Virus record (IMG/VR): IMGVR_UViG_2861048470_000002
Length of the DNA stretch: 54,063 nucleotides
Source of the DNA: a virus
Taxonomy: Duplodnaviria; Heunggongvirae; Uroviricota; Caudoviricetes
Reading direction: 5' to 3' (one strand)
Position 1 is the stretch's first letter; the number at the start of each line of letters is the position of its first letter. A model generated the notes under the pieces. That model was not told the DNA's origin. It worked only from the letters and a program-made list of their open reading frames with translations, and did not search any database. Of the stretch, positions 1,419 to 29,896 are shown one piece after another. A program made the translations under genes and the position numbers.

Positions 1419-2489
1419 TTATTTGATTTCAATTTTGTCCCACTCCCTGCCTCTGTCATCACGATACTGTGATGCCATGGTGTCCGACTTATGCCCGAGA
1501 AGATGTTGAGCAAACTTATCGCTTATCTGCTTCTCATAGAGTCTTGCAGACAAACTGCGCAACTCGTGAAAGGTAGGCGGATCCCCTTCGAAGGAAAGAC
1601 CTGATGCTTTTCGTGCGCGCATAAAATACCTTGATACTGTGCCGGATGAAAGCGGTTCGCGACGAGTAGATGCAATTATGGTTTCTCCGCCAAGAATCTC
1701 TTTGCATTTATCAAGTGTTTCCTTCATTGATATTCCGAGAGCATCAACATGCAATGCTGTTGGGATGGCAATTTTTACGCCTGTTTTGCTTTGCTCGACA
1801 TAAAGATATCCATCTACGATATCAGACCACTTCATTTCGCATAAATCACCAACTCGTTGCCCGGTAACAACAGCCAGTTCCATTGCAAGTCTGAGCCAAC
1901 ATGGTGATGATTCTGCTGCTTGATAAATTTTCAGGTATTCGTCAGCCGTAAGTCTTGATCTCCTTACCTCTGATTTTGCTGCGCGAGTGGCAGCGACAGG
2001 GTTTGTTGTTATATGGCCTTCAGCTATTGCCTCTCGGAATGCATCGCTCAGTGTTGATCTGATTAACTTGGCTGACGCCGCCTTGCCCTCGTCTATGTAT
2101 CCATTGAGCATTGCCGCAATTTCTTTTGTGGTGATGTCTTCAAGTGGAGCATCAGGCAGACCCCTCCTTATTGCTTTAATTTTGCTCATGTAATTTATGA
2201 GTGTCTTCTGCTTGATTCCTCTGCTGGCCAGGATTTTTTCGTAGCGATCAAGCCATGAATGTAACGTAACGGAATTATCACTGTTGATTCTCGCTGTCAG
2301 AGGCTTGTGTTTGTGTCCTGAAAATAACTCAATGTTGGCCTGTATAGCTTCAGTGATTGCGATTCGCCTGTCTCGGCCTAATCCAAACTCTTTACCCGTC
2401 CTTGGGTCCCTGTAGCAGTAATATCCATTGTTTCTTATATAAAGGTTAGGGGGTAAATCCCGGCGCTCATGACTTCGCCTTCTTCCCAT
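1419..2489 (-). CDS. int: Lambda integrase (tyrosine recombinase), 356 aa
   Basis: Translation MGRRRSHERRDLPPNLYIRNNGYYCYRDPRTGKEFGLG matches lambda Int from memory; next to attL. Confidence 0.97.
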   Translation of the reverse strand: MGRRRSHERRDLPPNLYIRNNGYYCYRDPRTGKEFGLGRDRRIAITEAIQANIELFSGHKHKPLTARINSDNSVTLHSWLDRYEKILASRGIKQKTLINYMSKIKAIRRGLPDAPLEDITTKEIAAMLNGYIDEGKAASAKLIRSTLSDAFREAIAEGHITTNPVAATRAAKSEVRRSRLTADEYLKIYQAAESSPCWLRLAMELAVVTGQRVGDLCEMKWSDIVDGYLYVEQSKTGVKIAIPTALHVDALGISMKETLDKCKEILGGETIIASTRREPLSSGTVSRYFMRARKASGLSFEGDPPTFHELRSLSARLYEKQISDKFAQHLLGHKSDTMASQYRDDRGREWDKIEIK

Positions 2490-2685
2490 TTCTGATCCTC
2501 TTCAAAAGGCTACCTGTTACTGGTCGATTTAAGTCAACCTTTACCGCTGATTCGTGGAACAGATATTCTCTTCCATCCTTAACCGGAGGAGGGAATATCC
2601 TGCATTCGCGCACCCATCGACGAACTGTTTCAAGGCTTCTTGGGCGTCGCTGGCGAGCGTTCCACTCCTGAAGTGTCAAGTACAT
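2467..2685 (-). CDS. xis: Lambda excisionase, 72 aa
   Basis: MYLTLQEWNARQRRPRSLETVRRWVRECRIFPPPVKDGREYLF; 3-prime end overlaps the int start as in lambda. Confidence 0.97.
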   Translation of the reverse strand: MYLTLQEWNARQRRPRSLETVRRWVRECRIFPPPVKDGREYLFHESAVKVDLNRPVTGSLLKRIRNGKKAKS

Positions 2686-2711
2686 CGCAAAGTCTCCGCA
2701 ATTACACGCAA

Positions 2712-2745
2712 GAAAAAACCGCCATCAGGCGGCTTGGTGTTCTTT
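2712..2745 (-). terminator. Hairpin plus T-run (GCCGCCTGATGGCGG TTTTTT on minus strand) overlapping the stop of the upstream small ORF
   Basis: Perfect short stem with a U-run, read directly from the sequence. Confidence 0.5.
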
Positions 2746-2892
2746 CAGTTCTTCAATTCGAATATTGGTTACGTCTGCATGTGCTATCTGCGCCCACAGC
2801 ATCCAGTGGTCATAGCAGTCGCTGATGTTCTCGGCTTCGATAACTCTGTTGAATGGTTCTCCATTCCATTCACCTGTGACTCGGAAGTGCAT
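2725..2892 (-). CDS. Small hypothetical protein, 55 aa (lambda orf55-like)
   Basis: ATG-initiated 55-codon ORF MHFRVTGEWNGEPFNRVIEAENISDCYDHWMLWAQIAHADVTNIRIEELKEHQAA just downstream of xis in the pL operon direction; below the 60-aa ORF-track cutoff. Confidence 0.5.
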   Translation of the reverse strand: MHFRVTGEWNGEPFNRVIEAENISDCYDHWMLWAQIAHADVTNIRIEELKEHQAA

Positions 2893-3134
2893 TTATCATC
2901 TCCATAAAACAAAACCCGCCGTAGCGAGTTCAGATAAAAGAAATCCTCGTCAGTGCGAGGATGCTGTTCATTGCTGCTATACACTTTTTTGCTCTCAACG
3001 TAAGCGGTAGCCCATTCTGTTGGGTTGGTGCAGTTGCTTTTAGGAAATGCTATTTACCCCTTAAATGTCGGCTGAAAGAGCTAAAATCCATGCAAAAAAT
3101 TTACGCAATTTTGTGTATTATTGTGCAGTAAGTA

Positions 3135-3737
3135 ATGAGCTATTTTCTGCGCAAAAAATGGATGGTAAATTTGTCCGGGTCAGGAAAAATTTTATGGGCG
3201 CTAAACATGAAAAAAGATTCGTATCCTTATTTGATTTGCATGACAGTTTCAGGGCTGATCTTTATTTTCCTTTTCTTCTGGTGGCGGGCAGATATCTACA
3301 GGGTCACGTTTCTTAATCAGAGTATATCCCACTATTACATTCTGTTTAGCATGGGAATAGCTTTTCTGTTATCTCTGTTTTGGGTTAAGAAGGGGATAGT
3401 AAAACAAAGCGGCTGGAAGAGTCTGTCAGCATACCTTAAGGTTTATGCAGGGATGTGCATATTTGCTGGATTTTTTCTGATTATACCCCTTACGACACTA
3501 ACTTATTTTTTGCCTGGAGAGACATCGTCTTATGTTGCACCGTATCGGTATACTTCCGGTAGTTCAAAAAGTTGTTCTGGAGCTGAGGTGGATGACCCCG
3601 ATCTACATGAGAATATTCGCATTTGCTATCCGTATGGCAATTATGAGTACGATAATATTATCTATGTTGAAAAGAAAATTAATATATTAGGTGCGGTAGT
3701 GACATATGCACAGACCGCGCGTGATGATACTGAATGA
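3135..3737 (+). CDS. Hypothetical integral membrane protein, about 3 predicted TM helices plus a ~75-aa C-terminal soluble domain; start codon uncertain (3135, 3207 or 3252)
   Basis: 200-aa ORF in an AT-rich island, opposite in orientation to the pL operon; hydrophobic segments LICMTVSGLIFIFLFFWW, YYILFSMGIAFLLSLFWV, AGMCIFAGFFLIIPLTTL; no recognisable family. Confidence 0.55.
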   Translation: MSYFLRKKWMVNLSGSGKILWALNMKKDSYPYLICMTVSGLIFIFLFFWWRADIYRVTFLNQSISHYYILFSMGIAFLLSLFWVKKGIVKQSGWKSLSAYLKVYAGMCIFAGFFLIIPLTTLTYFLPGETSSYVAPYRYTSGSSKSCSGAEVDDPDLHENIRICYPYGNYEYDNIIYVEKKINILGAVVTYAQTARDDTE

Positions 3738-3771
3738 TATAGTATATAGCGGGCAAGTTTTAGTTAATTTA

Positions 3772-3796
3772 TCGAGGTAATATAATTTACCTCGAC
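3772..3796. terminator. Bidirectional hairpin (TCGAGGTAAA TATAA TTTACCTCGA) between two convergent genes
   Basis: 10-bp perfect inverted repeat between the stop of the 3135-3737 gene and the stop of the 3948-4169 gene. Confidence 0.5.
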
Positions 3797-3947
3797 TCGT
3801 TTGTTCTGGTATTAATATTTCGCTTTACGACCGATTTTTATCTGATGATATCATGCGGTTTTCATATACTGACTTACTGTCTTTTCTCCGTTAGCGATTT
3901 TCTCCTGCTCAGCGATGATTTTATCTTTGGCTTCTAGTTAATTTCGC

Positions 3948-4169
3948 TCACTTCGAACCTCTCTGTTTACTGATAAGCTCCAGATCTTGCTGGCAACTGG
4001 CACAAGTCCGACAACCCTGAACGGCCAGTCGTCTTCGTTCATCTATCGGATCGCCACACTCACAACAATGAGTGGCAGATATAGCCTGGTGGTTCAGGCG
4101 GCGCATTTTTATTGCTGTGTTGCGCTGTAATTCTTCAATTTCTGATGCTGAATCAATTATGTCTGCCAT
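3948..4169 (-). CDS. TraR/DksA-family C4 zinc-finger protein, 73 aa
   Basis: CCECGDPIDERRRLAVQGCRTCASCQ four-cysteine motif typical of phage TraR/DksA-like proteins. Confidence 0.75.
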   Translation of the reverse strand: MADIIDSASEIEELQRNTAIKMRRLNHQAISATHCCECGDPIDERRRLAVQGCRTCASCQQDLELISKQRGSK

Positions 4170-4267
4170 CTTTCATTAATCCCTGAATTGTTGGTTAATA
4201 CGCTTGAGGGTGAATGCGAATAATAAAAAAGGAGCCTGTAGCTCCCTGATGATTTTGCTTTTCATGT

Positions 4268-4483
4268 TCACCGTTCCTTAAAGACGCCGTTCAACATGCC
4301 GATCGCCAGGCTTAAATGAGTCGGTGTGAATCCCATCAGCGTTACCGTTTCGCGGTGCTTCTTTAGTACGCTACGGCAAATGTCATCGACGTTTTTATCC
4401 GGAAACTGCTGTCTGGCTTTTTTGATTTCAGAATTAGCCTGACGGGCAATGCTGCGAAGGGCGTTTTCTTGCTGAGGTGTCAT
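4268..4483 (-). CDS. Small hypothetical early protein, about 71 aa (start taken at MTPQQENAL; the ORF could extend to 4549)
   Basis: ORF in the pL operon direction between the TraR-like gene and the orf63-like gene. Confidence 0.45.
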   Translation of the reverse strand: MTPQQENALRSIARQANSEIKKARQQFPDKNVDDICRSVLKKHRETVTLMGFTPTHLSLAIGMLNGVFKER

Positions 4484-4559
4484 TGAACAAGCCCCATGTC
4501 GGCAAGCATAAGCACACAGAATATGAAGCCCGCTGCCAGAAAAATGCATTCAGTGGTTG

Positions 4560-4751
4560 TCATACCTGGTCTCTCTCATCTGCTTCTGCTTTCGCCACCA
4601 TCATTTCCAGCTTTTGTGAAAGGGATGCGGCTAACGTATGAAATTCTTCGTCTGTTTCTACTGGTATTGGCACAAACCTGACTCCAATTTGAGCGAGGCT
4701 ATGTGCCATCTCGATACTCGTTCTTAACTCAACGGGAGATGCTTTGTGCAT
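4560..4751 (-). CDS. Lambda orf63-like small protein, 63 aa
   Basis: Position and size match lambda orf63 immediately upstream of orf60a/exo; sequence identity is from memory only. Confidence 0.55.
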   Translation of the reverse strand: MHKASPVELRTSIEMAHSLAQIGVRFVPIPVETDEEFHTLAASLSQKLEMMVAKAEADERDQV

Positions 4752-4912
4752 ACAGCTCCCCGTTTATTATTTATCTCCTCAGCCAGCCGCTGTGCTTTCA
4801 GGGGATTTCTGATAACAGAAAGGCCGGGAAATACCCAGCCTCGCTTTGTAACGGAGTAGACGAAAGTGATCGCACCTACCCGGATATTATCGTGAGGATG
4901 CTTCATCGCCAT
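4724..4912 (-). CDS. Lambda orf60a-like small protein, 62 aa
   Basis: [55 protein letters not shown]; overlaps the exo start as lambda orf60a does. Confidence 0.6.
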
Positions 4913-5583
4913 TGCTCCCCAAATACAAAACCAATTTCAGCCAGTGCCTCGTCCATTTTTTCGATGAACTCCGGCACCATCTCGTCAAAACTCGCCATGT
5001 ACTTTTCATCCCGCTCAACCACGACATAATGCAGGCCTTCACGCTTCATACGCGGGTCATAGTTGGCAAAGTACCAGGCATCTTTTCGCGTCACCCACAT
5101 GCTGTACTGCACCTGGGCCATGTAAGCCGACTTTATGGCCTCGAAACCACCGAGCCGGAACTTCATGAAATCCCGGGAGGTAAACGGGCATTTCAGCTCA
5201 AGGCCATTGCCGTCACTGCATAAACCATCGGGAGAGCAGGCGGTACGCATACTTTCGTCGCGATAGATGATCGGGGATTCAGTAACATTCACGCCGGAAG
5301 TGAATTCAAACAGAGTTCTGGCGTCGTTCTCGTACTGTTTTCCCCATGCCAGCGCCTTAGCATTAACTTCCGGAGCCACACCGGTGCAAACCTCAGCCAG
5401 CAGGGTGTGGAAGTAGGACATTTTCATGTCAGGCCACTTTTTTCCGGAGCGGGGTTTTGCTATCACATTGTGAACTTCTGAAGCGGTGATGACGCCGAGC
5501 CGTAATTTGTGCCACGCATCATCCCCCTGTTCGACAGCTCTCACGTCGATTCCGGTACGCTGCAGGATAATGTCCGGTGTCAT
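4903..5583 (-). CDS. exo: Lambda exonuclease (Red alpha), 226 aa
   Basis: [65 protein letters not shown] is lambda Exo. Confidence 0.97.
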
Positions 5584-6365
5584 GCAGCCACCTTCTGCTC
5601 AGTGGCTTTCTGTTTCAGGAATCCAAGAGCTTTCACTGCTTCGGCCTGTGTCAGTTCTGACGATGCGCGAATGTCGCGGCGAAATATCTGGGAACAGAGC
5701 GGCAATAAGTCGTCATCCCATGTTTTATCCAGGGCAATCAGCAGAGTGTTAATCTCCTGCATGGTTTCATCGTTAACCGGAGTGATGTCGCGTTCCGGCT
5801 GACGTTCTGCAGTGTATGCGGTATTTTCGACAATGCGCTCGGCTTCATCCTTGTCATAGATACCCGCAAATCCGAAGGCGAGACGGGCACACTGAATCAT
5901 GGCTTTATGCCGTAACATCCGTTTGGGATGCGACTGCCACGGTCCGGTGATTTCTCTGCCTTCGCGGGTTTTGAATGGTTCGCGGCGGCATTCATCCATC
6001 CACTCGGTAACGCAGATCGGATGATTGCGGTCCTTGCGGTAAATCCGGCATGTGCAGGATTCATTGTCCTGCTCAAAGTCCATGCCATCAAACTGCTGGT
6101 TTTCATTGATGATACGGGACCAGCCATCAACGCCCACCACCGGAACGATGCCGTTCTGCTTGTCAGGGAAGGCGTAAATTTCTTTCGTCCACGGATTAAG
6201 GCCGTACTGGTTGGCGACGATCAGCAATGCGATGAACTGCGCATCGCTGGCATCACCTTTAAATGCCGTCTGGCGAAGAGTGGTGATCAGTTCCTGTGGG
6301 TCGACAGAATCCATGCCGACGCGTTCAGCCAGCTTCCCAGCCAGCGTTGCGAGTGCTGTACTCAT
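5580..6365 (-). CDS. bet: Lambda Bet single-strand annealing protein (Red beta), 261 aa
   Basis: [66 protein letters not shown] is lambda Bet. Confidence 0.97.
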
Positions 6366-6370
6366 CCGTT

Positions 6371-6787
6371 TTATACCTCTGAATCAATATCAACCTGGTG
6401 GTGAGCAATGGTTTCAACCATGTACCGGATGTGTTCTGCCATGCGCTCCTGAAACTCAACATCGTCATCAAACGCACGGGTAATGGCTTTTTTGCTGGCC
6501 CCGTGGCGTTGTAAATGATCGATGCAGAGTGATTCAAACAGGTGCTGGGGCAGACCTTTTTCCATGTCGTCTGCCAGTTCTGCCTCTTTCTCTTCACGGG
6601 CGATCTGCTGGTAGTGACGCGTCCAGCTCTGAGCCTCAAGACGATCCTGAATGTAATAAGCGTTCATGGCTGAACTCCTGAAATAGCTGTGAAAATATCG
6701 CCCGCGAAATGCCGGGCTGATTAGGAAAACAGGAAAGGGGGTTAGTGAATGCTTTTGCTTGATCTCAGTTTCAGTATTAATATCCAT
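6371..6787 (-). CDS. gam: Lambda Gam, RecBCD inhibitor, 138 aa
   Basis: [55 protein letters not shown] is lambda Gam. Confidence 0.97.
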
Positions 6788-6885
6788 TTTTTATAAGCGT
6801 CGACGGCCTCACGAAACATCTTTTCATCGCCAATAAAAGTGGCGATAGTGAATTTAGTCTGGATAGCCATAAGTGTTTGATCCAT
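6742..6885 (-). CDS. kil: Lambda Kil host-killing protein, 47 aa
   Basis: [47 protein letters not shown], the internal start within the 89-aa track ORF; overlaps cIII by 32 nt as in lambda. Confidence 0.9.
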
Positions 6886-7018
6886 TTTTTGGGACTCCTG
6901 GCTGATTAAGTATGTCGATAAGGCGTTTCCATCCGTCACGTAATTTACGGGTGATTCGTTCAAGTAAAGATTCGGAAGGGCAGCCAGCAACAGGCCACCC
7001 TGCAATGGCATATTGCAT
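6854..7018 (-). CDS. cIII: Lambda CIII (FtsH inhibitor), 54 aa
   Basis: Hand translation of the reverse strand gives [54 protein letters not shown]; below the ORF-track cutoff. Confidence 0.9.
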   Translation of the reverse strand: MQYAIAGWPVAGCPSESLLERITRKLRDGWKRLIDILNQPGVPKNGSNTYGYPD

Positions 7019-7090
7019 GGTGTGCTCCTTATTTATACATAACGAAAAACGCCTCGAGTGAAGCGTTATTGGTATGCGGTAACGCCGCGC

Positions 7091-7459
7091 TCAGGCGGCT
7101 TTGATAGTCATATCATCTGAATCAAATATTCCTGATGTATCGATATCGGTAATTCTTATTCCTTCGCTACCATCCATTGGAGGCCATCCTTCCTGACCAT
7201 TTCCATCATTCCAGTCGAACTCACACACAACACCATATGCATTTAAGTCGCTTGAAATTGCTATAAGCAGAGCATGTTGCGCCAGCATGATTAATACAGC
7301 ATTTAATACAGAGCCGTGTTTATTGAGTCGGTATTCAGAGTCTGACCAGAAATTATTAATCTGGTGAAGTTTTTCCTCTGTCATTACGTCATGGTCGATT
7401 TCAATTTCTATTGATGCTTTCCAGTCGTAATCAATGATATATTTTTTGATGTTTGACAT
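7091..7459 (-). CDS. ea10: Lambda Ea10, 122 aa
   Basis: MSNIKKYIIDYDWKASIEIEIDHDVMTEEKLHQINNFWSDSEYRLNKHG matches lambda Ea10 from memory. Confidence 0.9.
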   Translation of the reverse strand: MSNIKKYIIDYDWKASIEIEIDHDVMTEEKLHQINNFWSDSEYRLNKHGSVLNAVLIMLAQHALLIAISSDLNAYGVVCEFDWNDGNGQEGWPPMDGSEGIRITDIDTSGIFDSDDMTIKAA

Positions 7460-7479
7460 CTATTCATATCCTCACAGAT

Positions 7480-7505
7480 AAAAAATCGCCCTCACATTGG
7501 AGGGC
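7480..7505 (-). terminator. Rho-independent terminator (GCCCTC ACATT GAGGGC then U-run on the minus strand) upstream of ea10
   Basis: Perfect 6-bp GC stem followed by a T-run in the leftward transcript direction. Confidence 0.5.
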
Positions 7506-7719
7506 AAAGAAGATTTCCAATAATCAGAACAAGTCGGCTCCTGTTTAGTTACGAGCGACATTGCTCAGTGTATTCACTCGTTGGAATGAATACACAGTGC
7601 AGTGTTTATTAGTATGCCTGTCTTTTAACCACATCAGGCTCGGTGGTTCTCGTGTACCCCTACAGCGAGAAATCGGATAAACTCTATTCACCCCTACAGA
7701 GAGCAAAAGAGAAACGCCG

Positions 7720-8301
7720 ATGAACAACTCATGGTGGCAGGAACTAATGCATTTTTTCCTGCAAGGAATGACACTTAAACAGTTGATTCATATGCTAATC
7801 ATCCTGATCATATTGATTATTGTTATGCCTGTAAGCGTAAAAGAATGGATAAACCTGCATAATCCAGAAATCCTTCCTCATTACTGGATGTATTACATCC
7901 TGTTGTTTTGCGTTAGCTATGTGCTTAACGGCGTTGTTAATTCCGCTTATCACGCTGTGACTGAAAGAATTGAGATATTCGCTGCTCAGAAGCGCAAATC
8001 TAAAGAAGAGAAATACGTGCAAGATTTGTTTGATTCGTTAACTCTTGGAGAAAGAGCGTATTTGGCATTCGCTGTAGCCGCTAATAACCAGCTAAAGACA
8101 GAAAAGGGAAGCCCTGAAGCAATCTCATTGCTCGAAAAAGGGCTTCTTATTCGGGTACCTTCTGCTACTGGATATCCTGAAATCGACCGTTTTGTTATCC
8201 CGGAACGCTATAGAAATGAGTGCTACATTAGGTTTGCTGGGAAGAAAGACAGTCTTATGGATGAACTTATCGCTCAGGATAAGCATGGCAAAAACAAGTA
8301 A
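7720..8301 (+). CDS. Membrane protein, possibly SieB-like superinfection exclusion, 193 aa
   Basis: N-terminal hydrophobic segments (LIHMLIILIILIIVMPV, YILLFCVSYVLNGVV); sits where sieB lies in lambdoid pL operons but on the opposite strand to N; family assignment from memory only. Confidence 0.45.
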   Translation: MNNSWWQELMHFFLQGMTLKQLIHMLIILIILIIVMPVSVKEWINLHNPEILPHYWMYYILLFCVSYVLNGVVNSAYHAVTERIEIFAAQKRKSKEEKYVQDLFDSLTLGERAYLAFAVAANNQLKTEKGSPEAISLLEKGLLIRVPSATGYPEIDRFVIPERYRNECYIRFAGKKDSLMDELIAQDKHGKNK

Positions 8302-15926: not shown

Positions 15927-17540
15927 TTATTTATTGGTGAGTACTACGTTCCATGGCAGGAGTTCGTCAACACGGTTGGAGGGCCATTCCGGCAGTACGC
16001 TCAGAATATGGCGCAGATACGCTTCCGGATCGATACCGTTCAGTCGGCAGGTGCCGATCAGCCCGTACAGCAGTGCTCCACGCTCGCCGCCGTGATCGCT
16101 ACCGAAGAACACGTAATTTTTCTTTCCGAGACAGACTGCACGAAGCGCTCTTTCCGCTGTGTTATTGTCCACCTCCGCCAGACCGTCATCACTGTAATAA
16201 CAGAGGGCGTCCCACTGATTCAGTACATAGCTGAACGCTTCGCCCAGTCTGGATTTTTTCGACAGCGTGCCATTCTTCTCCACCATCCATTCATGCAGCG
16301 ACGTCAGTAACGCTTTGCTTCGCTGCTGCCTGGCTGCAAGACGCTCTGACTCTGGTAATCCCCGTATTTCATTCTCGATGGCGTACAGTTCACTGATTCG
16401 CTTCAGGGCTTCTTCTGCCGTCGCACTTTTGCTGCTGATGTATACATCGTGGATTTTTCTCCGGGCATGAGCCCAGCACGCAACTTCTGTCAGCGCACTA
16501 CCTTCACGTTCTGCACTGAACAGCCTGTCATAACCTGTGAACGCATCCGCCTGCAGGATACCCCGGAAGGGGCGGAGGTGTTGCTCCGGGTGTTTCCCCT
16601 GCCGGTTCGATGAGTACGCGAACCAGACCGCCGGAGGAGATGACGAACCCGCATTGCGATCATCCCGGACATACGTCCAGATGCGCCCTGTTTTCGTCTT
16701 TTTCAGGCCCGGTGCCAGTACCTTTACCGGTGTGTCGTCAGTGTGAAGCTTGCGGGTATTCATCACATAACGGTACAGGGCATCATTCAGCGGCGTCATT
16801 AACTGGCAGCACGCGTCAACCCAGTTGGAGAGTAATGCACGGCTCAGTTCGACACCCTGTCGGGCAAAGATTTCACTCTGACGATACAGTGGCAGGTGTT
16901 CGCAGTATTTTCCCGTTAACACGCGGGCAAGTAATCCGGGGCCCGCGATACCACGCTCTATCGGGCGGGACGGCGCCGGTGCTTCAACGATGCAGTCACA
17001 TTTTGTACAGGCTTTTTTTACCCGTTCTGTGCGGATCACTTTCAGGGCGCTGCTCACCAGTTCCAGTTGTTCTGCGCTGACTTCCCCCAGATAATCCAGC
17101 TCACCGCCACACTCCGGGCAACAGCTTTCTTCAGGCTCCAGGCGGTATATTTCACGGGGGAGATGTGCCGGTAACGGACGACGATGGCGCGACTGTCGCA
17201 ACTGGCGGGGAACCAGTGGGTCATCCTCACGCCCACTGTAACGATCGCTTTCCTGCTCGCGTTGTTTCAGCAGGGCTTCAGCCTGTTCAACCTCACGACG
17301 CAGTTTTTCAGAACGGGTTCCGAACAGCATCCGGCGCAGTTTTTCTATCTGAGCCCGCAGATGCTCTATTTCTCGCTCATCTTCTTCGATCTTTTCTTCG
17401 GCACGTGCCAGTGCAGAGCGCAGGAAGGCCTCCGTCTCTTCAACCAGACTCAGTTGCTGGTCTTTCTGACGGAGGGCTTCAGCCTGCTCAGAGAGCAGCC
17501 TTTCCAGCTCAGCGATGCGAATGAGGTATTTCTGACTCAT
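15927..17540 (-). CDS. IS66-family transposase TnpC, 537 aa
   Basis: Coiled-coil N-terminus, CxxC...CxxC zinc motif, and conserved core typical of IS66 TnpC. Confidence 0.9.
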   Translation of the reverse strand: MSQKYLIRIAELERLLSEQAEALRQKDQQLSLVEETEAFLRSALARAEEKIEEDEREIEHLRAQIEKLRRMLFGTRSEKLRREVEQAEALLKQREQESDRYSGREDDPLVPRQLRQSRHRRPLPAHLPREIYRLEPEESCCPECGGELDYLGEVSAEQLELVSSALKVIRTERVKKACTKCDCIVEAPAPSRPIERGIAGPGLLARVLTGKYCEHLPLYRQSEIFARQGVELSRALLSNWVDACCQLMTPLNDALYRYVMNTRKLHTDDTPVKVLAPGLKKTKTGRIWTYVRDDRNAGSSSPPAVWFAYSSNRQGKHPEQHLRPFRGILQADAFTGYDRLFSAEREGSALTEVACWAHARRKIHDVYISSKSATAEEALKRISELYAIENEIRGLPESERLAARQQRSKALLTSLHEWMVEKNGTLSKKSRLGEAFSYVLNQWDALCYYSDDGLAEVDNNTAERALRAVCLGKKNYVFFGSDHGGERGALLYGLIGTCRLNGIDPEAYLRHILSVLPEWPSNRVDELLPWNVVLTNK

Positions 17541-20254: not shown

Positions 20255-21337
20255 TTAGAACTGGTAAACCATACCTACAGCAACGATATCATCGGTAGCA
20301 ACGCCAGATGCTTTCGTGAAATCGCTCTTATCAATCAGGTTGATTTTGTAGTCAACAAAAGTGGACATATTTTTGTTGAAGTAATAGGTTGCACCTACAT
20401 CAACATATTCAACCAGGTCCTGATCACCCCAAACACCCAAGTCTTTTCCTTTAGAATGCAGGTAAGCAACGGATGGACGCAGGCCGAAGTCGAACTGATA
20501 TTGTGCAACAGCTTCGAAGTTTTGTGCTTTGTTGGCAATATGGTTATTACCAAAAACAGTCATGTTCTGGGTTTCAGAATAGGTGGTAGCCAGATAGATG
20601 TTGTTCGCATCATATTTCAGACCAGCTGCCCATACTTCAGCATTTTGACCAGATGCATTCAGGCTGTTGTTACCGTAGATAACCTGATTATTAGTGCGGT
20701 CAGATTTAGCATAGGTTACACCTACACCGAATCCTTCATACTCATAAGTAGTGGAGAAACCGAAACCATCACCATTAGCTTCAGTTACGTCAGTGCGGTC
20801 ATTTTTACCCTGATACTGAGCAGCAAAGTTCAGACCATCAACCAGACCAAAGAAGTCATTGTTACGATAAGTTGCAACACCTGTGGTGCGACCAGTCATG
20901 AATACATCTGTTTGGGTCCAGGTATCGCCACCGAATTCTGGCAGAACGTCGGTCCATGCACCAATATCGTATGCTACACCGTAGTTACGGCCATAATCGA
21001 TGGAGCCGTAGTCACCGAATTTCAGGCCAGCGAAGGCAAGACGGGTTTTATCTTTGGAGGAACCTTGAGATTCAGCGCGGTTGCCTTTGAATTCATATTC
21101 CCACTGACCGAAACCAGTCAGTTGATCGTTGATTTGGGTTTCACCTTTGAAGCCAAGACGGGCATAAGTAGTATCACCATCATCTGCATCATTAGAGGAG
21201 AAGTAGTGCTTAGCATTAACTTTCCCGTACAGATCCAGCTTGTTACTGTCTTTATTATAAATTTCAGCTGCCTGAGCAGACATCGCCATCAGTACTGATG
21301 CAGCTACAGCAGAAATTGCCACTGTTAATTTTTTCAT
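20255..21337 (-). CDS. nmpC: Outer-membrane porin (OmpC/PhoE family; NmpC/OmpD-like), 360 aa, intact
   Basis: Signal peptide [23 protein letters not shown], porin body, C-terminal ...VAVGMVYQF; opposite strand between Q and the lysis genes. Confidence 0.93.
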
Positions 21338-21622
21338 CGTGAGCCCTTTTTTTGAACTATTATTAAAAAATGATGTCACTGCGCGATAAATATTCATCTA
21401 ATCAATGTGATTATTTCAAGATGTAAGTTTTGGTTTCTCATTTGATTTGTGAAGTAGATCTCTATTTTTATCTGAACTTTTTCTATCGAATCCTATTCAT
21501 GGCTCTTGGCTGAATAAAAATAAATCTATTAGCCAATTTATATTAATGGCTGTTATTTATAAGTGCTCTATAATTTGAAGATTCAATTTAAACCAGCTAA
21601 AAATAACGCTGGAAATTATTTG

Positions 21623-23864: not shown

Positions 23865-25436
23865 TTACTGAGAGCTCAGATCAACTTTCCAGGGCAACAG
23901 ATCGCGTACCCGGTTTGCCGGCCAGTCCTGGATATGTTCAATGACGTAACGCAGCCACTTTTCTGGCTCCACATTGTTCAGACGGCATGTGCCGATCAGC
24001 GAGTACAACACCGCCGCATGTTCACCACCGCTGTCGGAACCCGCGAACATCCAGTTTTTCCGGCCTACGGCCACTCCCCGTAAGGCGTTCTCTGCGATGT
24101 TGTTGTCGATTTCCACCCAGCCATTACTGCAGTACACGTTCAGTGCATCCCACTGTTTCAGCAGGTATGCGAACGCTTTTGCCGTATCTGAGTGACGCGA
24201 CAGTGTTTTCATCTGTTGCTGTATCCAGTCATACAGTGACTGCATCAGTGGCGCGGCTCTGGCTTTTCTTGCCGCCAGACGCTGTTCTGCTGAACAGCCC
24301 CGGACCTCTGCCTCGATGGCATACAGTTCACCGATACGCTGCAGGGCTTCCGTGGTGATGTAGGTGGGCGCTCTTGCATGCACATCGTGGATTTTTCTCC
24401 GGGCATGAGCCATACACGCGGCTTCCGTTATTCTGCCGGATTCGTATAACGCCCGGTAACCACCGTAAGCATCGGCCTGAAGCACACCGCTGTAACCGGC
24501 CAGGTGATTTTGTGGATGGATACCTTTCCGGTCCGGACTGTACGCGAACCAGACCGCCGGGGGCATCTGTGAACCGGCGTTACGGTCATCACGGACGTAG
24601 ACCCACAGCCGGGCTGTCCGGGTTTTACCGCTGCCCGGCTCCTGGACCGGGACGGGGATATCATCAGCATGGACTTTACCGGGCATCAGCACATACTGGC
24701 GCAGGACGTCATACAGCGGCTCCAGCAGTTCAGCAACAGCACCTGTCCAGCGCCCCAGTGTGGCACGGCTCAGCTCCACTCCCTGACGACGGTATATTTC
24801 TGACTGGCGGTATAACGGCAGATGGTCTGCATATTTCCCGGTGACAACATGGGCCAGAAGCCCCGCTCCGGCATAACTGCGTGCAATGGGTTTTGAAGGT
24901 ACTGGTGCCTGCACGATATGGTCGCACCGGCAACAGGCCTGTTTCGGACGTTGTGTTTCGATAACCTTAAAGGCGCTGCTGATAAGCTCCAGTTGCTCTG
25001 ACACATCACATCCCAGAGAACTGAGTTCACCACCACAGGCAGGACAGCATTCCTCTTCCGGCCGGATAACCCGGGTTTCACGGGGAAGTGAGGCCGGTAA
25101 CGGTTTACGGGCTGAAGACTGGCGCAGGGCGGATGGCAGTACCGGGTCATATTGCTCACCCAGCGTTTCCGCCATTTCTTCCTGAAGTGCGCTGATTCGC
25201 TCCTGTGCTTCCTGTATCTGCCGTTCGGTTTTTGCACGAAGTTTTTCTGAGCTTTTACCGAACTGCATACGTTGCAGTTTCGCAACCAGCGCCTTCAGCC
25301 GGTTGATTTCGGAAGCATAAGCCGCCACCCGCTGTGAGAGCAGGCGGTTGTATTCAGCCATCTGGCGGATGGTGTCCTGTTGCGTCTGCAACAGTGCCCG
25401 CAGGCGGGCGTTCTCATGAGCAAGTGAGGTGTCCAT
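23865..25436 (-). CDS. IS66-family transposase TnpC, 523 aa
   Basis: Homologous in layout and motifs to the other two TnpC copies but clearly a distinct sequence. Confidence 0.9.
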
Positions 25437-25455: not shown

Positions 25456-25803
25456 TTATATGCGGATTCCAGCGCGTTCCGTTCGTTTCGGGTGCTTCCA
25501 GTTGATACCTTCAAGAAGCATGGATAACTGAGCCGGAGTAAGGTGCACCTTGCCGTCACGGGTGACTGGCCAGACGAAGCGGCCCCGCTCCAGGCGTTTG
25601 GTGAAGAGGCACAGTCCGTCACTGTCAGCCCACAACACTTTTATCTGGTCACCCCGGCGTCCGCGGAAGATGAACAGGTGTCCGGAGAACGGGTCATCCT
25701 TCAGGACGTTCTGAACTTTTGATGCCAGGCCGTTAAAGCCATTTCGCATATCGGTGATACCTGCAACCAGCCAGATACGCGAACCTGCAGGGAGAGATAT
25801 CAT
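25456..25803 (-). CDS. IS66-family Orf2 (TnpB), 115 aa
   Basis: [26 protein letters not shown]. Confidence 0.9.
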   Translation of the reverse strand: MISLPAGSRIWLVAGITDMRNGFNGLASKVQNVLKDDPFSGHLFIFRGRRGDQIKVLWADSDGLCLFTKRLERGRFVWPVTRDGKVHLTPAQLSMLLEGINWKHPKRTERAGIRI

Positions 25804-26450
25804 CAGTGGCTGCTCCCTTTTATTTCGCGGATAAGTGTCTGTAATAACGCCGGCGTCAGTTTACCTTTAAGCCTGAGAGTTCCGGCCGGCAGAACCAGCT
25901 CACAACACAGACTGTCGGGCGGTGTATTTATCTGCTCTGGTTCCTGTGCGGGGGCCGGGATTTTATTATCCGGCTCCGGCGTTAACGTCACGGGAAGCAG
26001 TGCCGGCATATTTTTTCCGGAAGGCAGCAGGCCACCTTTCCGGTATTGATGGCGCCAGTTGAAGAGCAGGTTATCGTTGATTCCGTTTTCCCGGGCGATC
26101 TGCGCCACACAGGCTCCGGGCTGCAGTGACTGCTCCACTAAGGCGATTTTAAACTCATAAGGGAAGTTGGGCCGCCGGGGACGTTTTTTTACCACGGGGG
26201 CTTCGGATATAACGGTGCTTTCAGGACGTACGACTGGTACCGTGGAAAATTGTCCGTAAAGGCAGGCATCAAGTTCCTGCTCCGACATGCCTGCGGGCAA
26301 AGGCCACGAAAGGCCAGCTCTCCGAAAGCGCACGAACATACTACAAACAGTTGATTTTGGTACACCCAGGCGACGCCCGGCCACAACCCGGGGTAAATGT
26401 TCTTCAAAGTGAAGACGTAAAGCTTCAGTGATCCAGGTCCGGTGTTTCAT
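25803..26450 (-). CDS. IS66-family Orf1 (TnpA) with an extended N-terminal HTH-like region, 215 aa
   Basis: True start is the ATG at 26450 (MKHRTWITEALRL...); the 249-aa track ORF is an artefact that reads on into the nested IS. Confidence 0.7.
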   Translation of the reverse strand: MKHRTWITEALRLHFEEHLPRVVAGRRLGVPKSTVCSMFVRFRRAGLSWPLPAGMSEQELDACLYGQFSTVPVVRPESTVISEAPVVKKRPRRPNFPYEFKIALVEQSLQPGACVAQIARENGINDNLLFNWRHQYRKGGLLPSGKNMPALLPVTLTPEPDNKIPAPAQEPEQINTPPDSLCCELVLPAGTLRLKGKLTPALLQTLIREIKGSSH

Positions 26451-26541
26451 ACGATAGTGTCCATTAAAAAGTAAGCGTACAGCCTGAACCGTCTGGTCAG
26501 AATCTGACAAATTAGACAAAGTGGTGTCCACCAAATAAGTA

Positions 26542-26943
26542 GTGGGAACCAAAGTGTCAGATATGCAGAAAAATGTGACTCCCGGCAGGCGAAAAGGCTG
26601 CCCTAATTATCCTCCCGAATTTAAACAGCAGCTCGTTGCTGCCTCCTGTGAACCCGGGATATCCATCTCAAAACTTGCTCTTGAAAATGGCATTAACGCC
26701 AATCTGTTGTTCAAATGGCGACAACAATGGCGCGAGGGAAAGCTGCTATTACCTTCTTCAGAGAGCCCCCAGCTACTTCCTGTGACTCTCGATGCAGCTG
26801 CCGAACAGCCAGAATCGCTCGCAGAGGACCCGGAAACCCTCAGTATCAGCTGTGAGGTAACGTTCCGGCACGGGACGCTCCGCTTCAATGGCAATGTCAG
26901 CGAAAAGCTCCTGACTCTGCTGATACAGGAACTGAAGCGATGA
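26542..26943 (+). CDS. IS66-family Orf1 (TnpA), 133 aa
   Basis: First gene of the three-gene IS66 set. Confidence 0.9.
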   Translation: MGTKVSDMQKNVTPGRRKGCPNYPPEFKQQLVAASCEPGISISKLALENGINANLLFKWRQQWREGKLLLPSSESPQLLPVTLDAAAEQPESLAEDPETLSISCEVTFRHGTLRFNGNVSEKLLTLLIQELKR

Positions 26944-27336: not shown

Positions 27337-28875
27337 ATGAACGACATCTCTTCTGACGACATCTTCCTGCTGAAACAGCGCCTGGCCGAACAGGAAGCGC
27401 TGATCCACGCCCTGCAGGAAAAGCTGAGCAACCGGGAGCGCGAAATAGACCATCTGCAGGCGCAGCTGGATAAACTCCGCCGGATGAACTTCGGCAGTCG
27501 TTCCGAAAAAGTCTCCCGCCGTATCGCACAAATGGAAGCCGATCTGAACCGGCTTCAGAAAGAGAGCGATACGCTGACTGGTAGGGTGTATGACCCGGCT
27601 GTACAGCGTCCGTTGCGTCAGACCCGCACCCGTAAGCCGTTCCCTGAATCACTACCCCGTGACGAAAAGCGACTGTTGCCTGCGGCGCCGTGCTGCCCGA
27701 ACTGCGGCGGTTCACTGAGCTATCTGGGCGAGGATACCGCCGAACAGCTGGAGTTGATGCGTAGTGCCTTCCGGGTTATCCGGACGGTACGGGAAAAACA
27801 TGCCTGTACTCAGTGCGATGCCATCGTGCAGGCACCTGCACCTTCGCGGCCCATCGAGCGGGGTATCGCCGGACCGGGGCTGCTGGCCCGCGTGCTGACC
27901 TCGAAGTATGCAGAGCACACCCCGCTGTATCGCCAGTCAGAAATATACGGCCGGCAAGGTGTGGAGCTGAGCCGTTCACTGCTGTCGGGCTGGGTGGATG
28001 CATGCTGCCGGCTGCTGTCTCCGCTGGAAGAGGCGCTTCATGGCTATGTCATGACTGACGGCAAACTCCATGCCGATGATACCCCGGTCCAGGTACTGCT
28101 GCCGGGTAATAAGAAGACGAAGACCGGGCGGTTGTGGGCGTATGTTCGTGATGACCGCAATGCCGGGTCAGCGTTGGCACCTGCAGTGTGGTTCGCTTAC
28201 AGCCCGGACAGAAAAGGCATCCATCCGCAGACTCATCTTGCCTGCTTCAGCGGTGTGCTGCAAGCGGATGCGTACGCCGGGTTCAACGAGCTGTATCGCA
28301 ATGGTGGGATAACGGAAGCTGCCTGCTGGGCTCATGCCCGCCGAAAGATCCACGATGTGCACGTCCGCATCCCGTCAGCACTGACGGAAGAAGCCCTGGA
28401 GCAGATCGGTCAGTTGTACGCCATAGAGGCGGATATAAGGGGAATGCCGGCAGAGCAGCGGCTTGCTGAACGTCAGCGAAAAACGAAACCGCTGTTGAAA
28501 TCCCTGGAAAGCTGGTTGCGTGAAAAGATGAAAACCCTGTCGCGACACTCAGAACTGGCGAAAGCGTTCGCATACGCCCTGAACCAGTGGCCGGCGCTGA
28601 CGTACTATGCAGATGATGGCTGGGCTGAGGCGGACAATAACATCGCTGAAAATGCGTTGCGGATGGTCAGTCTGGGCCGCAAAAACTACCTGTTCTTCGG
28701 TTCGGATCATGGAGGAGAGCGGGGAGCGCTGCTGTACAGCCTGATCGGGACGTGCAAACTGAACGGAGTGGAGCCAGAAAGCTACCTCCGCTATGTCCTT
28801 GACGTCATAGCCGACTGGTCGATAAACCGGGTCGGCGAACTGCTCCCCTGGCGCGTAGCACTGCCGACTGAATAA
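27337..28875 (+). CDS. IS66-family transposase TnpC, 512 aa
   Basis: Coiled-coil N-terminus, zinc motif CPNCGG...CTQCD, conserved core. Confidence 0.9.
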
Positions 28876-29427
28876 CACATCCCCGTCAATACGGTTCTTG
28901 CTGCACGCTTACATTAAAAATGATGGACATTATTTTTGTAGAGCCGGAGGAAACAGACCAGACGGTTTAAATGAGCCGGTTACCGCCATCAAAGAAACAC
29001 GCTCAAAGCTGAAAGGTACGATCGGCAGTCGGTTAATGAACGAACGGAAGAAAGAGAAGCGTGTCCTGGCTGTCGAGCATGAATACATCTTGCAGGTGAC
29101 ACAGCCTGAACTGCTGATTAATTGAAGATGTCATTACAAAGCCTATCTACGGGGGGCTTGATAATGGCTTATACCCTGCACGGGATAACTTAACTGATAT
29201 CCCTTTTAACGGATAAAGGTATTCAAGCCTGACACATCATGCGCTGTATCGTCGCCGTATTCCCGCATTAACCATGACCGTAGCCCGACGGGGAATTCCT
29301 TCTGCGTGAGTGTGCGGGAATAATCAAAAACGATGCACACCGGGTTATTAACGCGTCAACTGAACGCGGGGTTGCTCTTCATGTCAGCCAGTCCGGTGCA
29401 GGGGTAGAAGAAACCGGACGTTATGGT

Positions 29428-29838
29428 TTAGTGTGGAAACATTTGTGATGTGCTCTGTATGTTTTCAGTAAAGAGTAATGAATTATCAAAGGCATAGTAA
29501 TATCTTTTTTGTTCGTGGATATTTGTAACCCACCGAAAAACTCCTGCTTTAGCAAGGTTTCTTCTGTATTCCTGAAATGTGATCTCTCTGGATTTCAGCT
29601 TATTAGAGGTCGTTTCTATAAGATGCCTATCCTTTGAAAATTTGACAGACACAATGTTTTTTAGGCCCTTTAATAACACTGTATTATCATTTTTTAATAC
29701 AATATGAACATTCTCTGTGGCTAAATAGTAAATGTAATGTGAGACATTATGACGTTTTAGCTCAGAATAAAACCATTGATAGTTTAAATCGTTTCGAACT
29801 TTATCAAATATTTGTTTAAAAATGACTACCTGATCCAT
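29428..29838 (-). CDS. DUF1398-like protein (DLP12 YbcV-like), 136 aa from the MDQVVIF start
   Basis: ORF with internal start [51 protein letters not shown]; family name from memory. Confidence 0.55.
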
Positions 29839-29896
29839 AGATAAACCTTCCATGTGATATGAGGGGGGCGTAGTCTGCACGATTATCTAAATTGCT

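Follow-up and report, generated by a model that had tools for sequence, protein, structure and literature searches.

HK97 gp15, P22 SieA and the SieB of lambda and P22 are products of prophage-expressed exclusion genes, and the first two are inner-membrane proteins. In P22, sieA is annotated with a promoter of its own and is encoded on the opposite strand from the genes around it. SNIPE, a membrane-bound nuclease of E. coli, acts where phages inject their genomes, in association with the ManYZ PTS permease and the tape measure protein (PMC13190303). In P2-like prophages, the portal–gpA (gpQ–gpA) interval is the old/tin defence hotspot, which also houses genes with no defence role, among them partition systems and the cdt toxin (PMC9122126). 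System #4 in Table S5B of Rousset et al. 2022, listed there as "3 TM" with 470 occurrences and lacking a Pfam match, is absent from the systems that were cloned and tested in that study (PMC9122126). Here we analyse a window, that is, the whole stretch of 54,063 nucleotides of a Caudoviricetes virus (IMG/VR record IMGVR_UViG_2861048470_000002), in which a gene for a small membrane protein occupies the position of lambda ea8.5 and ea22. In BLASTP, this protein aligns with system #4 at 52% identity over 168 aa (E 5e-57).

The AT-rich island and its backbone neighbours

The features of the region are listed below by window coordinates and strand.

2725–2892, (−): orf55, homologue of lambda lambdap35 (phrog_676, 5.5e-40), inside the lambda block 2400–2962; backbone, not cargo
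2943–2962, (−): terminator-type hairpin from the terminator scan, at the left end of lambda homology
2963–3935, no strand: AT-rich replacement segment of 973 bp in the lambda ea8.5 + ea22 position
3070–3827, (+): putative mobile cassette (promoter region, gene and terminator), common to E. coli P2-like prophages
3163–3171, (+): candidate extended −10 element TGGTAAATT, kept among homologous loci, with a putative transcription start near 3178
3207–3737, (+): coding sequence of the membrane protein with corrected start, 176 aa (mechanical ORF from 3135)
3207–3503, (+): membrane part, aa 1–99, with three helices; the N-terminus and the Lys-rich loop that joins helices 2 and 3 are both predicted to be cytoplasmic
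3504–3734, (+): predicted periplasmic domain, aa 100–176, a five-stranded OB-like barrel and the most conserved part
3772–3795, (+): terminator-like hairpin downstream of the membrane-protein gene, from the terminator scan
3894–3950, (−): what is left of an ea22-like gene (5′ end)
3948–4169, (−): homologue of lambda orf73, a TraR/DksA C4 zinc finger of 73 aa; backbone gene of the pL operon
4268–4549, (−): orf61-like gene (phrog_303, 3.6e-43), inside the lambda block 3936–5000; backbone

BLAST against lambda gives two blocks, 2400–2962 (96.8% identical to lambda 28793–29355) and 3936–5000 (97.2% identical), with a break between them. The lambda counterpart of the intervening 2963–3935 is 29356–30379, which encodes ea8.5 and ea22, so the reading made earlier from the sequence alone was right in placing an AT-rich island where these lambda genes would be. 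Two hallmarks of a moron are present, namely sharp homology breakpoints with absence from collinear relatives, at 2962/3936, and a deviating base composition: the GC content is 38.2% in the island and averages 51.8% over the window, and no more than 0.2% of windows of the same size are equally AT-rich. On the left, the hairpin at 2943–2962 (−9.5 kcal/mol) is followed by UUUCUUUU, and its position is equivalent to that of terminator t-L4 in the phage 434 record M60848. A 56-aa ORF at 2961–3131, annotated in phage 434 as a membrane protein, was discarded as a candidate, being absent from RefSeq and mostly outside the conserved cassette. An Rfam scan of 2600–4600 returned nothing credible.

The island fills the slot between orf55 and orf73 of a lambda/434-type prophage. 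This slot is variable in other phages, holding ea8.5 and ea22 in lambda, an LprI-family gene and an Ea22-like gene in ev099, and nothing in PhiR70_1. The slot genes of lambda and ev099 all lie on the pL strand; the membrane-protein gene runs opposite to the pL operon (3207–3737, (+)), as had been noted. The accompanying generalisation that this position commonly holds exclusion or defence cargo finds no support in the small set of phages compared here (lambda, ev099 and PhiR70_1). At the right end of the island, the minus-strand translations contain a VSEIN-stop and a LEAKDKIIAEQEKIA fragment, the remnant of the ea22-like gene; blastn matches 3894–3937 to an Ea22-like ORF adjoining a P2-like copy of the membrane gene, and in strain H3 this Ea22-like neighbour is annotated as an incomplete ead/Ea22-like gene.

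The zinc finger on the pL strand belongs to the TraR/DksA C4 family, with a PF01258 match at 5.1e-9 (36.4 bits against a cut-off of 24.9), a phrog_54 match at 1.8e-25 and a CxxC...CxxC motif in its translation. It is identical to lambda Orf73 at 70 of 72 residues (97%) and is the same gene, with its place and strand in the pL operon unchanged, and therefore is not to be counted as part of the island; the sequence-only reading, which had included it, named the type of protein correctly but misassigned its membership. Lambda Orf73 is a TraR homologue that binds RNA polymerase and is expressed from pL (PMC9239242). The next gene, the orf61-like one, has a shorter product of 71 aa in RefSeq. A two-gene module of membrane protein and zinc finger in the island is very improbable: every lambdoid locus recovered has the two genes side by side and convergent, but the zinc finger is lambda orf73 and lies in backbone DNA that begins at 3936, and each gene occurs without the other, orf73 in lambda, Stx phages and PhiR70_1, and the membrane gene in P2-like prophages and chromosomes. 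These distribution data refute the module.

Start, selection and predicted fold of the membrane protein

The mechanical ORF extends over 3135–3737 (+) and would encode 200 aa. Its true start is almost certainly the ATG at 3207 (Met25), giving a protein of 176 aa, because all 17 of the 17 divergent homologues begin at Met25 and because the conserved candidate −10 element at 3163–3171 sits 3′ of the ATG at 3135. The start codon had indeed been flagged as uncertain in the sequence-only reading; of the 200-aa protein with three helices that it described, the helices stand and the length does not. Over-long starts are also present in databases, in RefSeq (200 aa) and in the phage 434 record (189 aa), and the frameshift annotated in one P2-like copy probably arose because the reference model used had such a start.

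The gene is real and under purifying selection, with dN/dS values of 0.115, 0.087 and 0.164 against three P2-like copies (dS 1–2), and by region the constraint is stronger on the periplasmic domain than on the helices. Thirty residues are invariant across copies as low as 42% identity. An ORF that arose by chance in AT-rich filler, or one in decay, would fit the weak Shine-Dalgarno sequence preceding 3207, the truncated products of 112 aa and 81 aa recorded in many assemblies, and the frameshifted P2-like copy. Yet this frameshift is probably artefactual, and a dN/dS of about 0.1 at dS 1–2, the 30 invariant residues, a confident AlphaFold model and the 962 E. coli genomes that hold at least 80% of the gene leave a non-functional ORF next to no likelihood.

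Hydropathy analysis marks three hydrophobic segments (aa 30–50, 64–88 and 99–128 in the 200-aa numbering), and AlphaFold places helices at 5–29, 38–61 and 69–101 in the 176-aa numbering, with a pLDDT of 86.3 and a pTM of 0.72 for the whole protein. The C-terminal region of about 75 aa, previously described as a 75-aa tail, keeps its length but not that description, since AlphaFold gives a folded five-stranded barrel (pLDDT 89 for this domain alone). Over the 21 aligned family members, the summed charges are +91/−15 in loop 2, +36/−9 at the N-terminus and +39/−26 in loop 1, and the C-terminal domain is net acidic in most of them. The predicted topology, that of an inner-membrane protein, has the N-terminus in the cytoplasm, followed by the three helices, and the barrel in the periplasm, which a short conserved loop is also predicted to face. 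The only two invariant cysteines, Cys123 and Cys140, are both in the C-terminal domain, and a disulfide between them is probable. Conservation is concentrated in the barrel, while the helices are the least conserved part and almost devoid of invariant polar residues. A cleavable signal peptide or a lipoprotein was rejected by eye, there being neither an AxA site nor a conserved lipobox cysteine. We hold the overall anatomy of protein and cassette with high confidence.

The cassette and the distribution of its gene

A consensus promoter scan found no canonical −35/−10 pair upstream of the gene. A TG(G/A)TAA(A/T/G)TT element is nevertheless found 44–48 nt upstream of the ATG in 9 of the 18 loci examined, including lambdoid loci, P2-like loci of E. 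coli, Salmonella and Enterobacter, and chromosomal copies in Citrobacter and Cedecea, and the upstream DNA of the loci bearing TGnTAAnTT is otherwise unrelated. Downstream, the convergent hairpin reported after the gene is found at 3772–3795, with perfect 9-bp arms, a 6-nt loop, a folding energy of −12.9 kcal/mol and a weak U-tract. With blastn, the cassette aligns to positions 4864–5619 of L079, a homologous locus in an E. coli P2-like prophage, as one segment (76.5% identical over 761 columns), which begins 137 bp before the ATG and ends 90 bp beyond the stop; at the position aligned to 3772–3795, L079 has a weaker stem of 6 bp with one G-T pair, as drawn by eye. To judge from these alignments, the gene and its flanks move as a unit, and the best explanation of the cassette at 3070–3827 is an autonomous moron with its own promoter-like element, one gene and a terminator-like hairpin. 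Expression in the lysogen is plausible, because the gene has its own conserved promoter-like element and terminator-like hairpin; an orientation opposite to pL would also allow it.

The same features bear on a role that is not exerted from the prophage, in which the gene, like the neighbouring exo–xis genes, would contribute to lytic growth or lysogenisation of the phage itself, for example by modulating host division or the envelope or by preventing re-adsorption or re-injection during lytic growth. Its location inside the exo–xis region would suit such a role, as would its replacement of ea8.5 and ea22, which influence the lysis–lysogeny decision (PMC7093339). But the gene runs opposite to pL between a conserved promoter-like element and a terminator-like hairpin of its own, the cassette recurs in P2-like phages, whose regulation is wholly different, and in phage-free chromosomes, and PhiR70_1 lacks any gene in this slot; we consider this role quite improbable.

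Among complete E. coli genomes, 982 of 5426 (18%) carry the gene, the 962 with at least 80% of it mostly at 95% identity or more; carriers include Shigella sonnei and some O157 strains, and the phages with the gene are 434, mEp332 and 2B8. Clustering at 90% identity gives 74 clusters. A profile search over 1.84 billion representatives returned a small family only, with about 60 genuine representatives at 50% identity (62 were listed, of which two large repeat proteins, P0124 and P0131, proved spurious on inspection), and every source that could be identified belongs to the Enterobacterales. In P2-like prophages of five genera, diverged copies are situated between the portal gene and the replication genes; the named carriers at this portal–gpA interval are P2-like prophages of Salmonella, Klebsiella, Enterobacter and E. 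coli and a metagenomic P2-like contig. In two P2-like loci the homologue is the sole sizeable cargo, accompanied only by one small unannotated ORF between the portal gene/ogr and gpA.

A small multi-pass membrane protein in a prophage, with its own promoter-like element, might be an abortive-infection effector, RexB-like or the transmembrane effector of a signalling system, that depolarises or permeabilises the inner membrane upon phage infection. According to Rousset et al., the transmembrane proteins of known systems are believed to act as suicide effectors (PMC9122126), and a search of BFVD gave a match to a "SMODS-associating 2TM beta-strand rich effector", which is non-significant (E 0.25, TM-score 0.29). 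Against this, the cassette holds a single gene with no sensor partner (in the two P2-like loci, the one small ORF besides), the helices are the least conserved part and conservation resides in the periplasmic barrel, and the gene is stable in 18% of E. coli and at chromosomal sites with no antitoxin-like neighbour. We regard a suicide effector as improbable.

Homologues are also found outside prophages, on chromosomes of the Enterobacter cloacae complex, Klebsiella, Citrobacter, Cedecea, Pseudescherichia and Serratia and on Pantoea megaplasmids. In the Enterobacter cloacae complex, the copies are syntenic and have diverged along with the species (68–97% identity). A LysR regulator adjoins the gene in Enterobacter; an operon of the two was rejected, as this neighbour is missing in several species of the same complex. 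In the sequence-only reading, clear homology to a membrane protein unrelated to phage biology was held to speak against its proposal; this objection applies in part, as ordinary chromosomal homologues do exist in seven genera. Two of the non-phage copies each adjoin a glucose-family PTS permease gene, which is ptsG for the Serratia copy and encodes a bgl-type EIIBCA for the Klebsiella copy. We do not take this adjacency as functional evidence, since it concerns 2 of about 10 non-phage contexts and was noticed post hoc; it is a lead only.

These chromosomal copies raise the possibility of a lysogenic-conversion or fitness gene unrelated to phages, whose periplasmic domain protects or modifies the envelope; in variants of this explanation, the protein would confer immunity, as an orphan, against a bacteriocin or type VI effector that acts in the periplasm or on the membrane, or be an accessory or regulatory partner of an inner-membrane transporter. 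Ordinary chromosomal copies in at least seven genera, with synteny in the Enterobacter cloacae complex, argue for it, as do the strong purifying selection on the periplasmic domain, the two PTS-adjacent copies and the virulence and maintenance cargo of the P2 hotspot. No consistent toxin or partner neighbour is found, however, the neighbours varying in nearly every genus; the protein has no similarity to known immunity families; and cargo that two unrelated families of temperate phages have repeatedly taken up in their accessory slots more typically serves against phages or in competition. We rate a fitness gene as doubtful, if a serious contender.

Proposed function and comparison with known systems

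The idea of defence is supported, indirectly, by the diverged homologues in the P2-like gpQ–gpA hotspot. As a tentative proposal, to which we assign somewhat less than an even chance, the membrane protein may block superinfection at the inner membrane. The gene would be read against the repressed pL operon from the candidate extended −10 promoter and its product made in the lysogen, where the anchored periplasmic domain would attach, at the inner membrane, to a conserved element of the path taken by entering phage genomes, so that superinfecting phages would be blocked (superinfection exclusion) and the lysogen envelope protected. A real and constrained gene, its conserved start and promoter-like element, the predicted topology, the mobility of the cassette, its recurrence in the P2 gpQ–gpA hotspot, its presence in 18% of E. 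coli and the precedent of HK97 gp15, SieA and SieB favour exclusion. On the other side, PADLOC, Pfam and an hhalign comparison with SieA yielded no homology to a known exclusion or defence protein, homologues reside outside prophages at ordinary chromosomal sites, the P2 hotspot also contains non-defence cargo, and the Shine-Dalgarno sequence is weak. That the exposed domain is the most conserved part is, moreover, unlike an arms-race protein and counts against exclusion.

Glucose- and mannose-family PTS permeases are used by siphophages for DNA entry. In a more specific and unlikely version of the exclusion proposal, the family would be a new, widespread exclusion class of lambdoid and P2-like phages, whose barrel binds a host entry factor, such as a PTS permease of the glucose/mannose family, and closes the entry route. 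Binding to such a permease would explain the conserved exposed domain, the occurrence in several host genera and the two PTS-adjacent chromosomal copies.

The gene is present in the classical phage 434 and in about one-sixth of complete E. coli genomes, yet has neither a name nor a Pfam family. Among the entries that Rousset et al. 2022 catalogue for the E. coli P2-like hotspot, its family ranks fourth in frequency (PMC9122126). Should the protein keep phages from entering, predictions of host range in phage therapy would be affected for a large share of E. coli, and if it acts by exclusion, a new fold would join the short list of membrane exclusion proteins; if it has another envelope role, it would be a very common lysogenic-conversion factor. 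One cassette of 760 bp is cheap to test, and phage 434 offers a natural knockout background. Three annotations call for correction, namely the start codon, the P2-like "frameshift" pseudogene (probably) and the zinc finger, which is backbone.

The protein had not been recognised when read from its sequence, and this accords with the remote-homology searches. Scans of Pfam, NCBIfam and PADLOC with the protein gave noise only, as did a Pfam scan of the 21 aligned family members; PADLOC-DB v2 has no matching family at E up to 1, the best E in a sequence-profile search of the PDB is 0.43, and Foldseek against BFVD finds nothing at E 0.001 or better. The sole family match is phrog_1416 (PHROGs v4), hit by all 21 aligned members with a best E of 5e-51; its unannotated profile of 90 positions covers helix 3 and the C-terminal domain only, and presumably goes back to truncated gene calls, of which the 112-aa products are an example. 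SieB (PF14163) matches neither the protein nor any of the 21 members, whereas the window's true sieB, elsewhere at 7720–8301 (+), scores 1e-25 with this model. Other exclusion models in Pfam and PHROG, presumably including that of T4 Imm, likewise do not match the membrane protein, and hhalign of the family alignment with P22 SieA gives a probability of 0.1% (E 0.56). No functional study of the protein was found in the literature on phage 434, mEp332 and exclusion in P2-like phages.

In structure, the C-terminal barrel resembles small OB-like barrels such as those of the DUF1093 protein 3npp, the OB domain of EF-P and cold-shock domains. The order of membrane helices followed by a small C-terminal OB barrel is also that of short NfeD proteins; no member matches NfeD PF01957 at E up to 1, and an NfeD-type match in BFVD is non-significant (E 0.10). 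In design, the protein would be analogous to P22 SieA, SieB and HK97 gp15, all being small membrane proteins whose moron genes have promoters of their own (here a promoter-like element), are expressed from the prophage and act at the envelope. It differs from SieA and SieB in combining three helices with a predicted periplasmic OB-like barrel, and no sequence relationship to either was found. It also differs from SNIPE in having no nuclease or other recognisable catalytic domain, although SNIPE may serve as a precedent for constitutive inner-membrane defence at the entry site. From system #4 of the P2 hotspot, it differs in belonging to a lambdoid instead of a P2-like phage family and in occupying another slot; it resembles system #4 in length, in its three helices, in the CSGAxVDDPDL...ICYPxGxY domain, and in being single-gene cargo with its own orientation.

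The segment replacing ea8.5 and ea22 and its prophage setting

BLAST against phage lambda aligns window 2400-2962 with lambda 28793-29355 (96.8% identity) and window 3936-5000 with lambda 30380-31445 (97.2%), and the intervening 973 bp stand in for the lambda segment with ea8.5 and ea22. This segment has 38.2% GC against a window average of 51.8%, and only 0.2% of equal-sized windows are equally AT-rich. The sequence-only reading had described an AT-rich island replacing ea8.5/ea22, and the breakpoints at 2962/3936 and the base composition bear this out. The ORF it proposed (3135-3737, + strand) indeed has three hydrophobic segments of ~20 residues each by hydropathy, and its downstream hairpin was found at 3772-3795, as an inverted repeat with 9-bp perfect arms and -12.9 kcal/mol. 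With ORF, hairpin, zinc finger, breakpoints and GC content all verified, the description of the island is correct and the pattern is not due to chance. The other features of the window considered here are as follows.

2961-3131, + strand: 56-codon ORF, phage 434 record CPT_434B_35, "putative membrane protein"
3894-3950, - strand: ea22-like 5' remnant, five codons (VSEIN-stop) plus a short LEAKDKIIAEQEKIA fragment
3948-4169, - strand: 73-codon ORF (Orf73), DksA/TraR zinc-finger family, above the Pfam cut-off
4268-4549, - strand: orf61-like backbone gene, 93 codons as mechanical ORF
7720-8301, + strand: sieB superinfection-exclusion gene, PF14163 at 1e-25, phrog_1301 at 6e-124
15927-17540, - strand: IS66-family transposase gene, right arm of the prophage
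20255-21397, - strand: general porin gene, Pfam Porin_1 at 2.8e-152
23865-25436, - strand: IS66-family transposase gene, right arm of the prophage
25803-26552: HTH_Tnp_1 ORF
27337-28875, + strand: IS66-family transposase gene, right arm of the prophage

The window starts within the last part of ybhC, and int (1419-2489, - strand), xis and a 55-codon gene come next; here, a lambda/434-type prophage occupies the lambda attachment site. With three IS66-family insertions, this prophage may be defective. Its pL operon, read leftward from the minus strand, comprises N, ea10, cIII, kil, gam, bet, exo, orf60a, orf63 and orf61, and sieB, on the opposite strand, means that the prophage already has one known exclusion gene. 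The porin gene, oriented against the late genes, makes a second envelope-modifying conversion gene in this prophage.

The zinc finger that the sequence-only reading had placed in the island is real but is no island cargo: its lambda counterpart, an unannotated 73-codon ORF in the equivalent position that other lambda records label DksA/TraR protein, encodes a product 97% identical. Orf73 binds RNA polymerase, is transcribed from pL and increases phage yield about four-fold (PMC9239242). The 55-codon gene is likewise lambda's lambdap35. The finding is real but narrower than first described, with one gene, not two. The 56-codon ORF at 2961-3131, which is uncalled in RefSeq, overlaps the t-L4 hairpin and lies mostly beyond the conserved cassette, is probably no gene. 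The start of the orf61-like gene is also uncertain (71 codons in RefSeq, 61 codons for lambda orf61).

Start, selection and predicted fold of the membrane protein

In every divergent homologue (42-78% identical), the start aligns with Met25 of the 200-aa ORF, at the motif MKK(D/Y)SYP. The sequence TG(G/A)TAA(A/T/G)TT, which occurs 44-48 nt upstream of this ATG in 9 of 18 loci and is kept even where the upstream DNA is otherwise unrelated, reads as a candidate extended -10 promoter and sits downstream of the ATG at 3135. Together, the homologue starts and the position of the candidate promoter argue that the protein has 176 aa and is encoded by 3207-3737. The earlier doubt about the start codon was therefore justified, the 200-aa start being wrong; the starts given in RefSeq (200 aa) and in the phage 434 record (TTG, 189 aa) are probably both too long. 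Upstream of the candidate promoter, (T)GTGCA motifs repeat at a spacing of about 11 bp (window 3090-3130, + strand; 4885-4930 in L079, an E. coli P2-like prophage copy). The repeats, ATTGTGCAAATTTGTGCACTATCGTGCAG in the P2-like copy and preceded by an A-tract, are common to lambdoid and several P2-like copies, and might bind a regulator or act as an UP element.

Against three P2-like prophage copies, dN/dS is 0.115, 0.087 and 0.164 at dS 1-2, which indicates that the membrane protein is a real gene product. Constraint is stronger in the C-terminal part than in the helices, and most of the 30 positions invariant across 21 sequences (down to 42% identity) fall in the last 75 residues. AlphaFold with the family alignment yields a confident model (pLDDT 86.3, pTM 0.72) in which three long helices, with a short strand between the first two, precede five C-terminal strands; the five strands form again when the C-terminal 77 residues are modelled alone (pLDDT 89.3). 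Hydropathy and model thus concur on three transmembrane helices, whereas the region previously described as a 75-aa C-terminal tail, although present, is modelled as a folded five-stranded barrel. Family charge counts show 91 Lys/Arg against 15 Asp/Glu in the loop between helices 2 and 3 and 36 against 9 at the N-terminus, with the first loop nearly neutral and the C-terminal domain carrying a net negative charge in most members. The positive-inside rule would place the N-terminus and loop 2 in the cytoplasm and leave loop 1 and the barrel in the periplasm. Two cysteines of the barrel, one where strand 2 begins and one where strand 3 ends, are the only invariant ones, and many members have no further cysteine; a disulfide between the two is likely.

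The membrane protein, which the first reading did not recognise, also has no match in Pfam, NCBIfam, PADLOC or a profile search of PDB sequences, and Foldseek against viral models returned nothing significant. Its sole family match is phrog_1416, which carries no annotation and whose profile, 90 positions long, is limited to helix 3 and the barrel, presumably because it was built from shortened gene calls such as the 112-aa products in many assemblies. A profile search of 1.84 billion representatives recovered 62 proteins, two of them spurious repeat proteins, and the family is restricted to Enterobacterales.

A cassette shared by lambdoid and P2-like phages

Phages 434, mEp332 and 2B8 carry the gene, as do 982 of 5426 complete E. 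coli genomes, always on the chromosome and in most cases with at least 95% identity. Among the 79 IMG/VR loci recovered, 64 are lambdoid and 15 P2-like or of unclear context; in all 64 lambdoid loci, the gene lies directly before orf73, even with differing left flanks. P2-like prophages carry diverged copies between portal gene Q and replication gene A, in E. coli (80% and 52% identity to the window protein), Salmonella (71% and 59%), Klebsiella (55%), Enterobacter hormaechei (57%) and a metagenomic contig (50%); two of these Q-A intervals contain no other sizeable cargo, only one additional small unannotated ORF.

Window 3070-3827 aligns with the E. coli P2-like copy as one blastn segment (761 columns, 76% identity), which takes in 137 bp ahead of the ATG as well as 90 bp after the stop codon, the hairpin included. 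Directly beyond it, ea22-like gene pieces occur in both contexts, namely the 5' remnant of the window and a 127-codon N-terminal Ea22-like piece in the P2-like prophage, which suggests that the lambdoid exo-xis region and the P2 hotspot have exchanged DNA. The shared segment and these pieces indicate that the gene travels between lambdoid and P2-like phages as one cassette with its putative promoter and terminator, matching the classical definition of a moron. Since the lambdoid copies are almost uniform whereas the P2-like copies diverge deeply, long residence in P2-like phages and recent spread among lambdoids are suggested.

The Q-A interval is the old/tin hotspot of P2, rich in anti-phage systems and also carrying partition systems and the cdt toxin (PMC9122126). 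Its system #4 (Table S5B: no Pfam, 470 occurrences, "3 TM") is a family member, 52% identical to the window protein, and is absent from the tables of cloned systems, hence was untested in that study (PMC9122126). The family is therefore uncharacterised yet already catalogued, as phrog_1416 and as system #4. Its kind, a moron-encoded membrane protein, is familiar, and on present evidence it is no new kind of system.

Several public records of this family or region deserve comment. The P2-like copy of E. coli strain H3 (L101 6257-6832, NZ_CP010167) is marked "frameshifted" in RefSeq, although the identical L079 sequence has an intact 176-codon frame; a reference model whose start is over-long has probably produced this call in error. 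Shortened products of 112 and 81 aa (P0132 and P0139) from the same allele occur on at least 1000 contigs. A copy 99% identical to the window membrane protein is encoded in a "Candidatus Nanosynbacter" MAG, on a contig of 3.5 kb (L103, JARKOR010000073.1). A record named "Campylobacter phage CJLB-4" (H80, MW057783.1) aligns at 97% to 63% of window 2400-5000, and its match has the coordinates and coverage of the phage lambda match. Contamination or mislabelling seems to lie behind both entries.

Exclusion and other possible functions

Because conservation is concentrated in the predicted periplasmic module, the function should reside mainly there, and the helices look like an anchor. Four points favour a protective, phage-related role: the cassette is predicted to be read against the repressed early operon, two unrelated temperate-phage families have captured it into their accessory slots, one of these slots is an established defence hotspot, and the protein is predicted at the inner-membrane face that incoming phage genomes must cross. 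Collectively, they lead us to favour, tentatively, superinfection exclusion at the entry step.

Against exclusion, the protein has no homology to any exclusion or defence protein, its exposed domain is strongly conserved, unlike an arms-race interface, and chromosomal copies exist outside phages. Non-phage copies share a syntenic position across the Enterobacter cloacae complex and have diverged there along with the species; others occupy differing sites in Klebsiella, Citrobacter, Pseudescherichia, Cedecea and Serratia or lie on Pantoea megaplasmids. The three points against exclusion fit better with a conserved host target or a phage-unrelated role. We consider exclusion slightly less likely than not, an envelope or immunity function unrelated to phages somewhat less likely again, and the remaining alternatives unlikely even jointly. 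Two non-phage copies adjoin glucose-family PTS permease genes, which we treat as a lead only: the homologue of Serratia marcescens pE28_003 (L118, NZ_CP042515; region 5333-7510) follows ptsG at a distance of 234 bp on the same strand, and that of Klebsiella sp. R390 (L012, region 3882-6543) and a neighbouring bgl-type PTS EIIBCA gene are divergently oriented. The Serratia "plasmid" NZ_CP042515 contains fabF, tmk, holB and ptsG and is by appearance a chromosome piece.

The gene is unusually common, is carried by a classical phage and is accessible to test with one small clone and one deletion. For superinfection exclusion at the entry step, HK97 gp15 and P22 SieA provide functional precedents. 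SNIPE, a membrane-bound nuclease acting at the ManYZ/tape-measure entry site (PMC13190303), is a looser precedent than these two.
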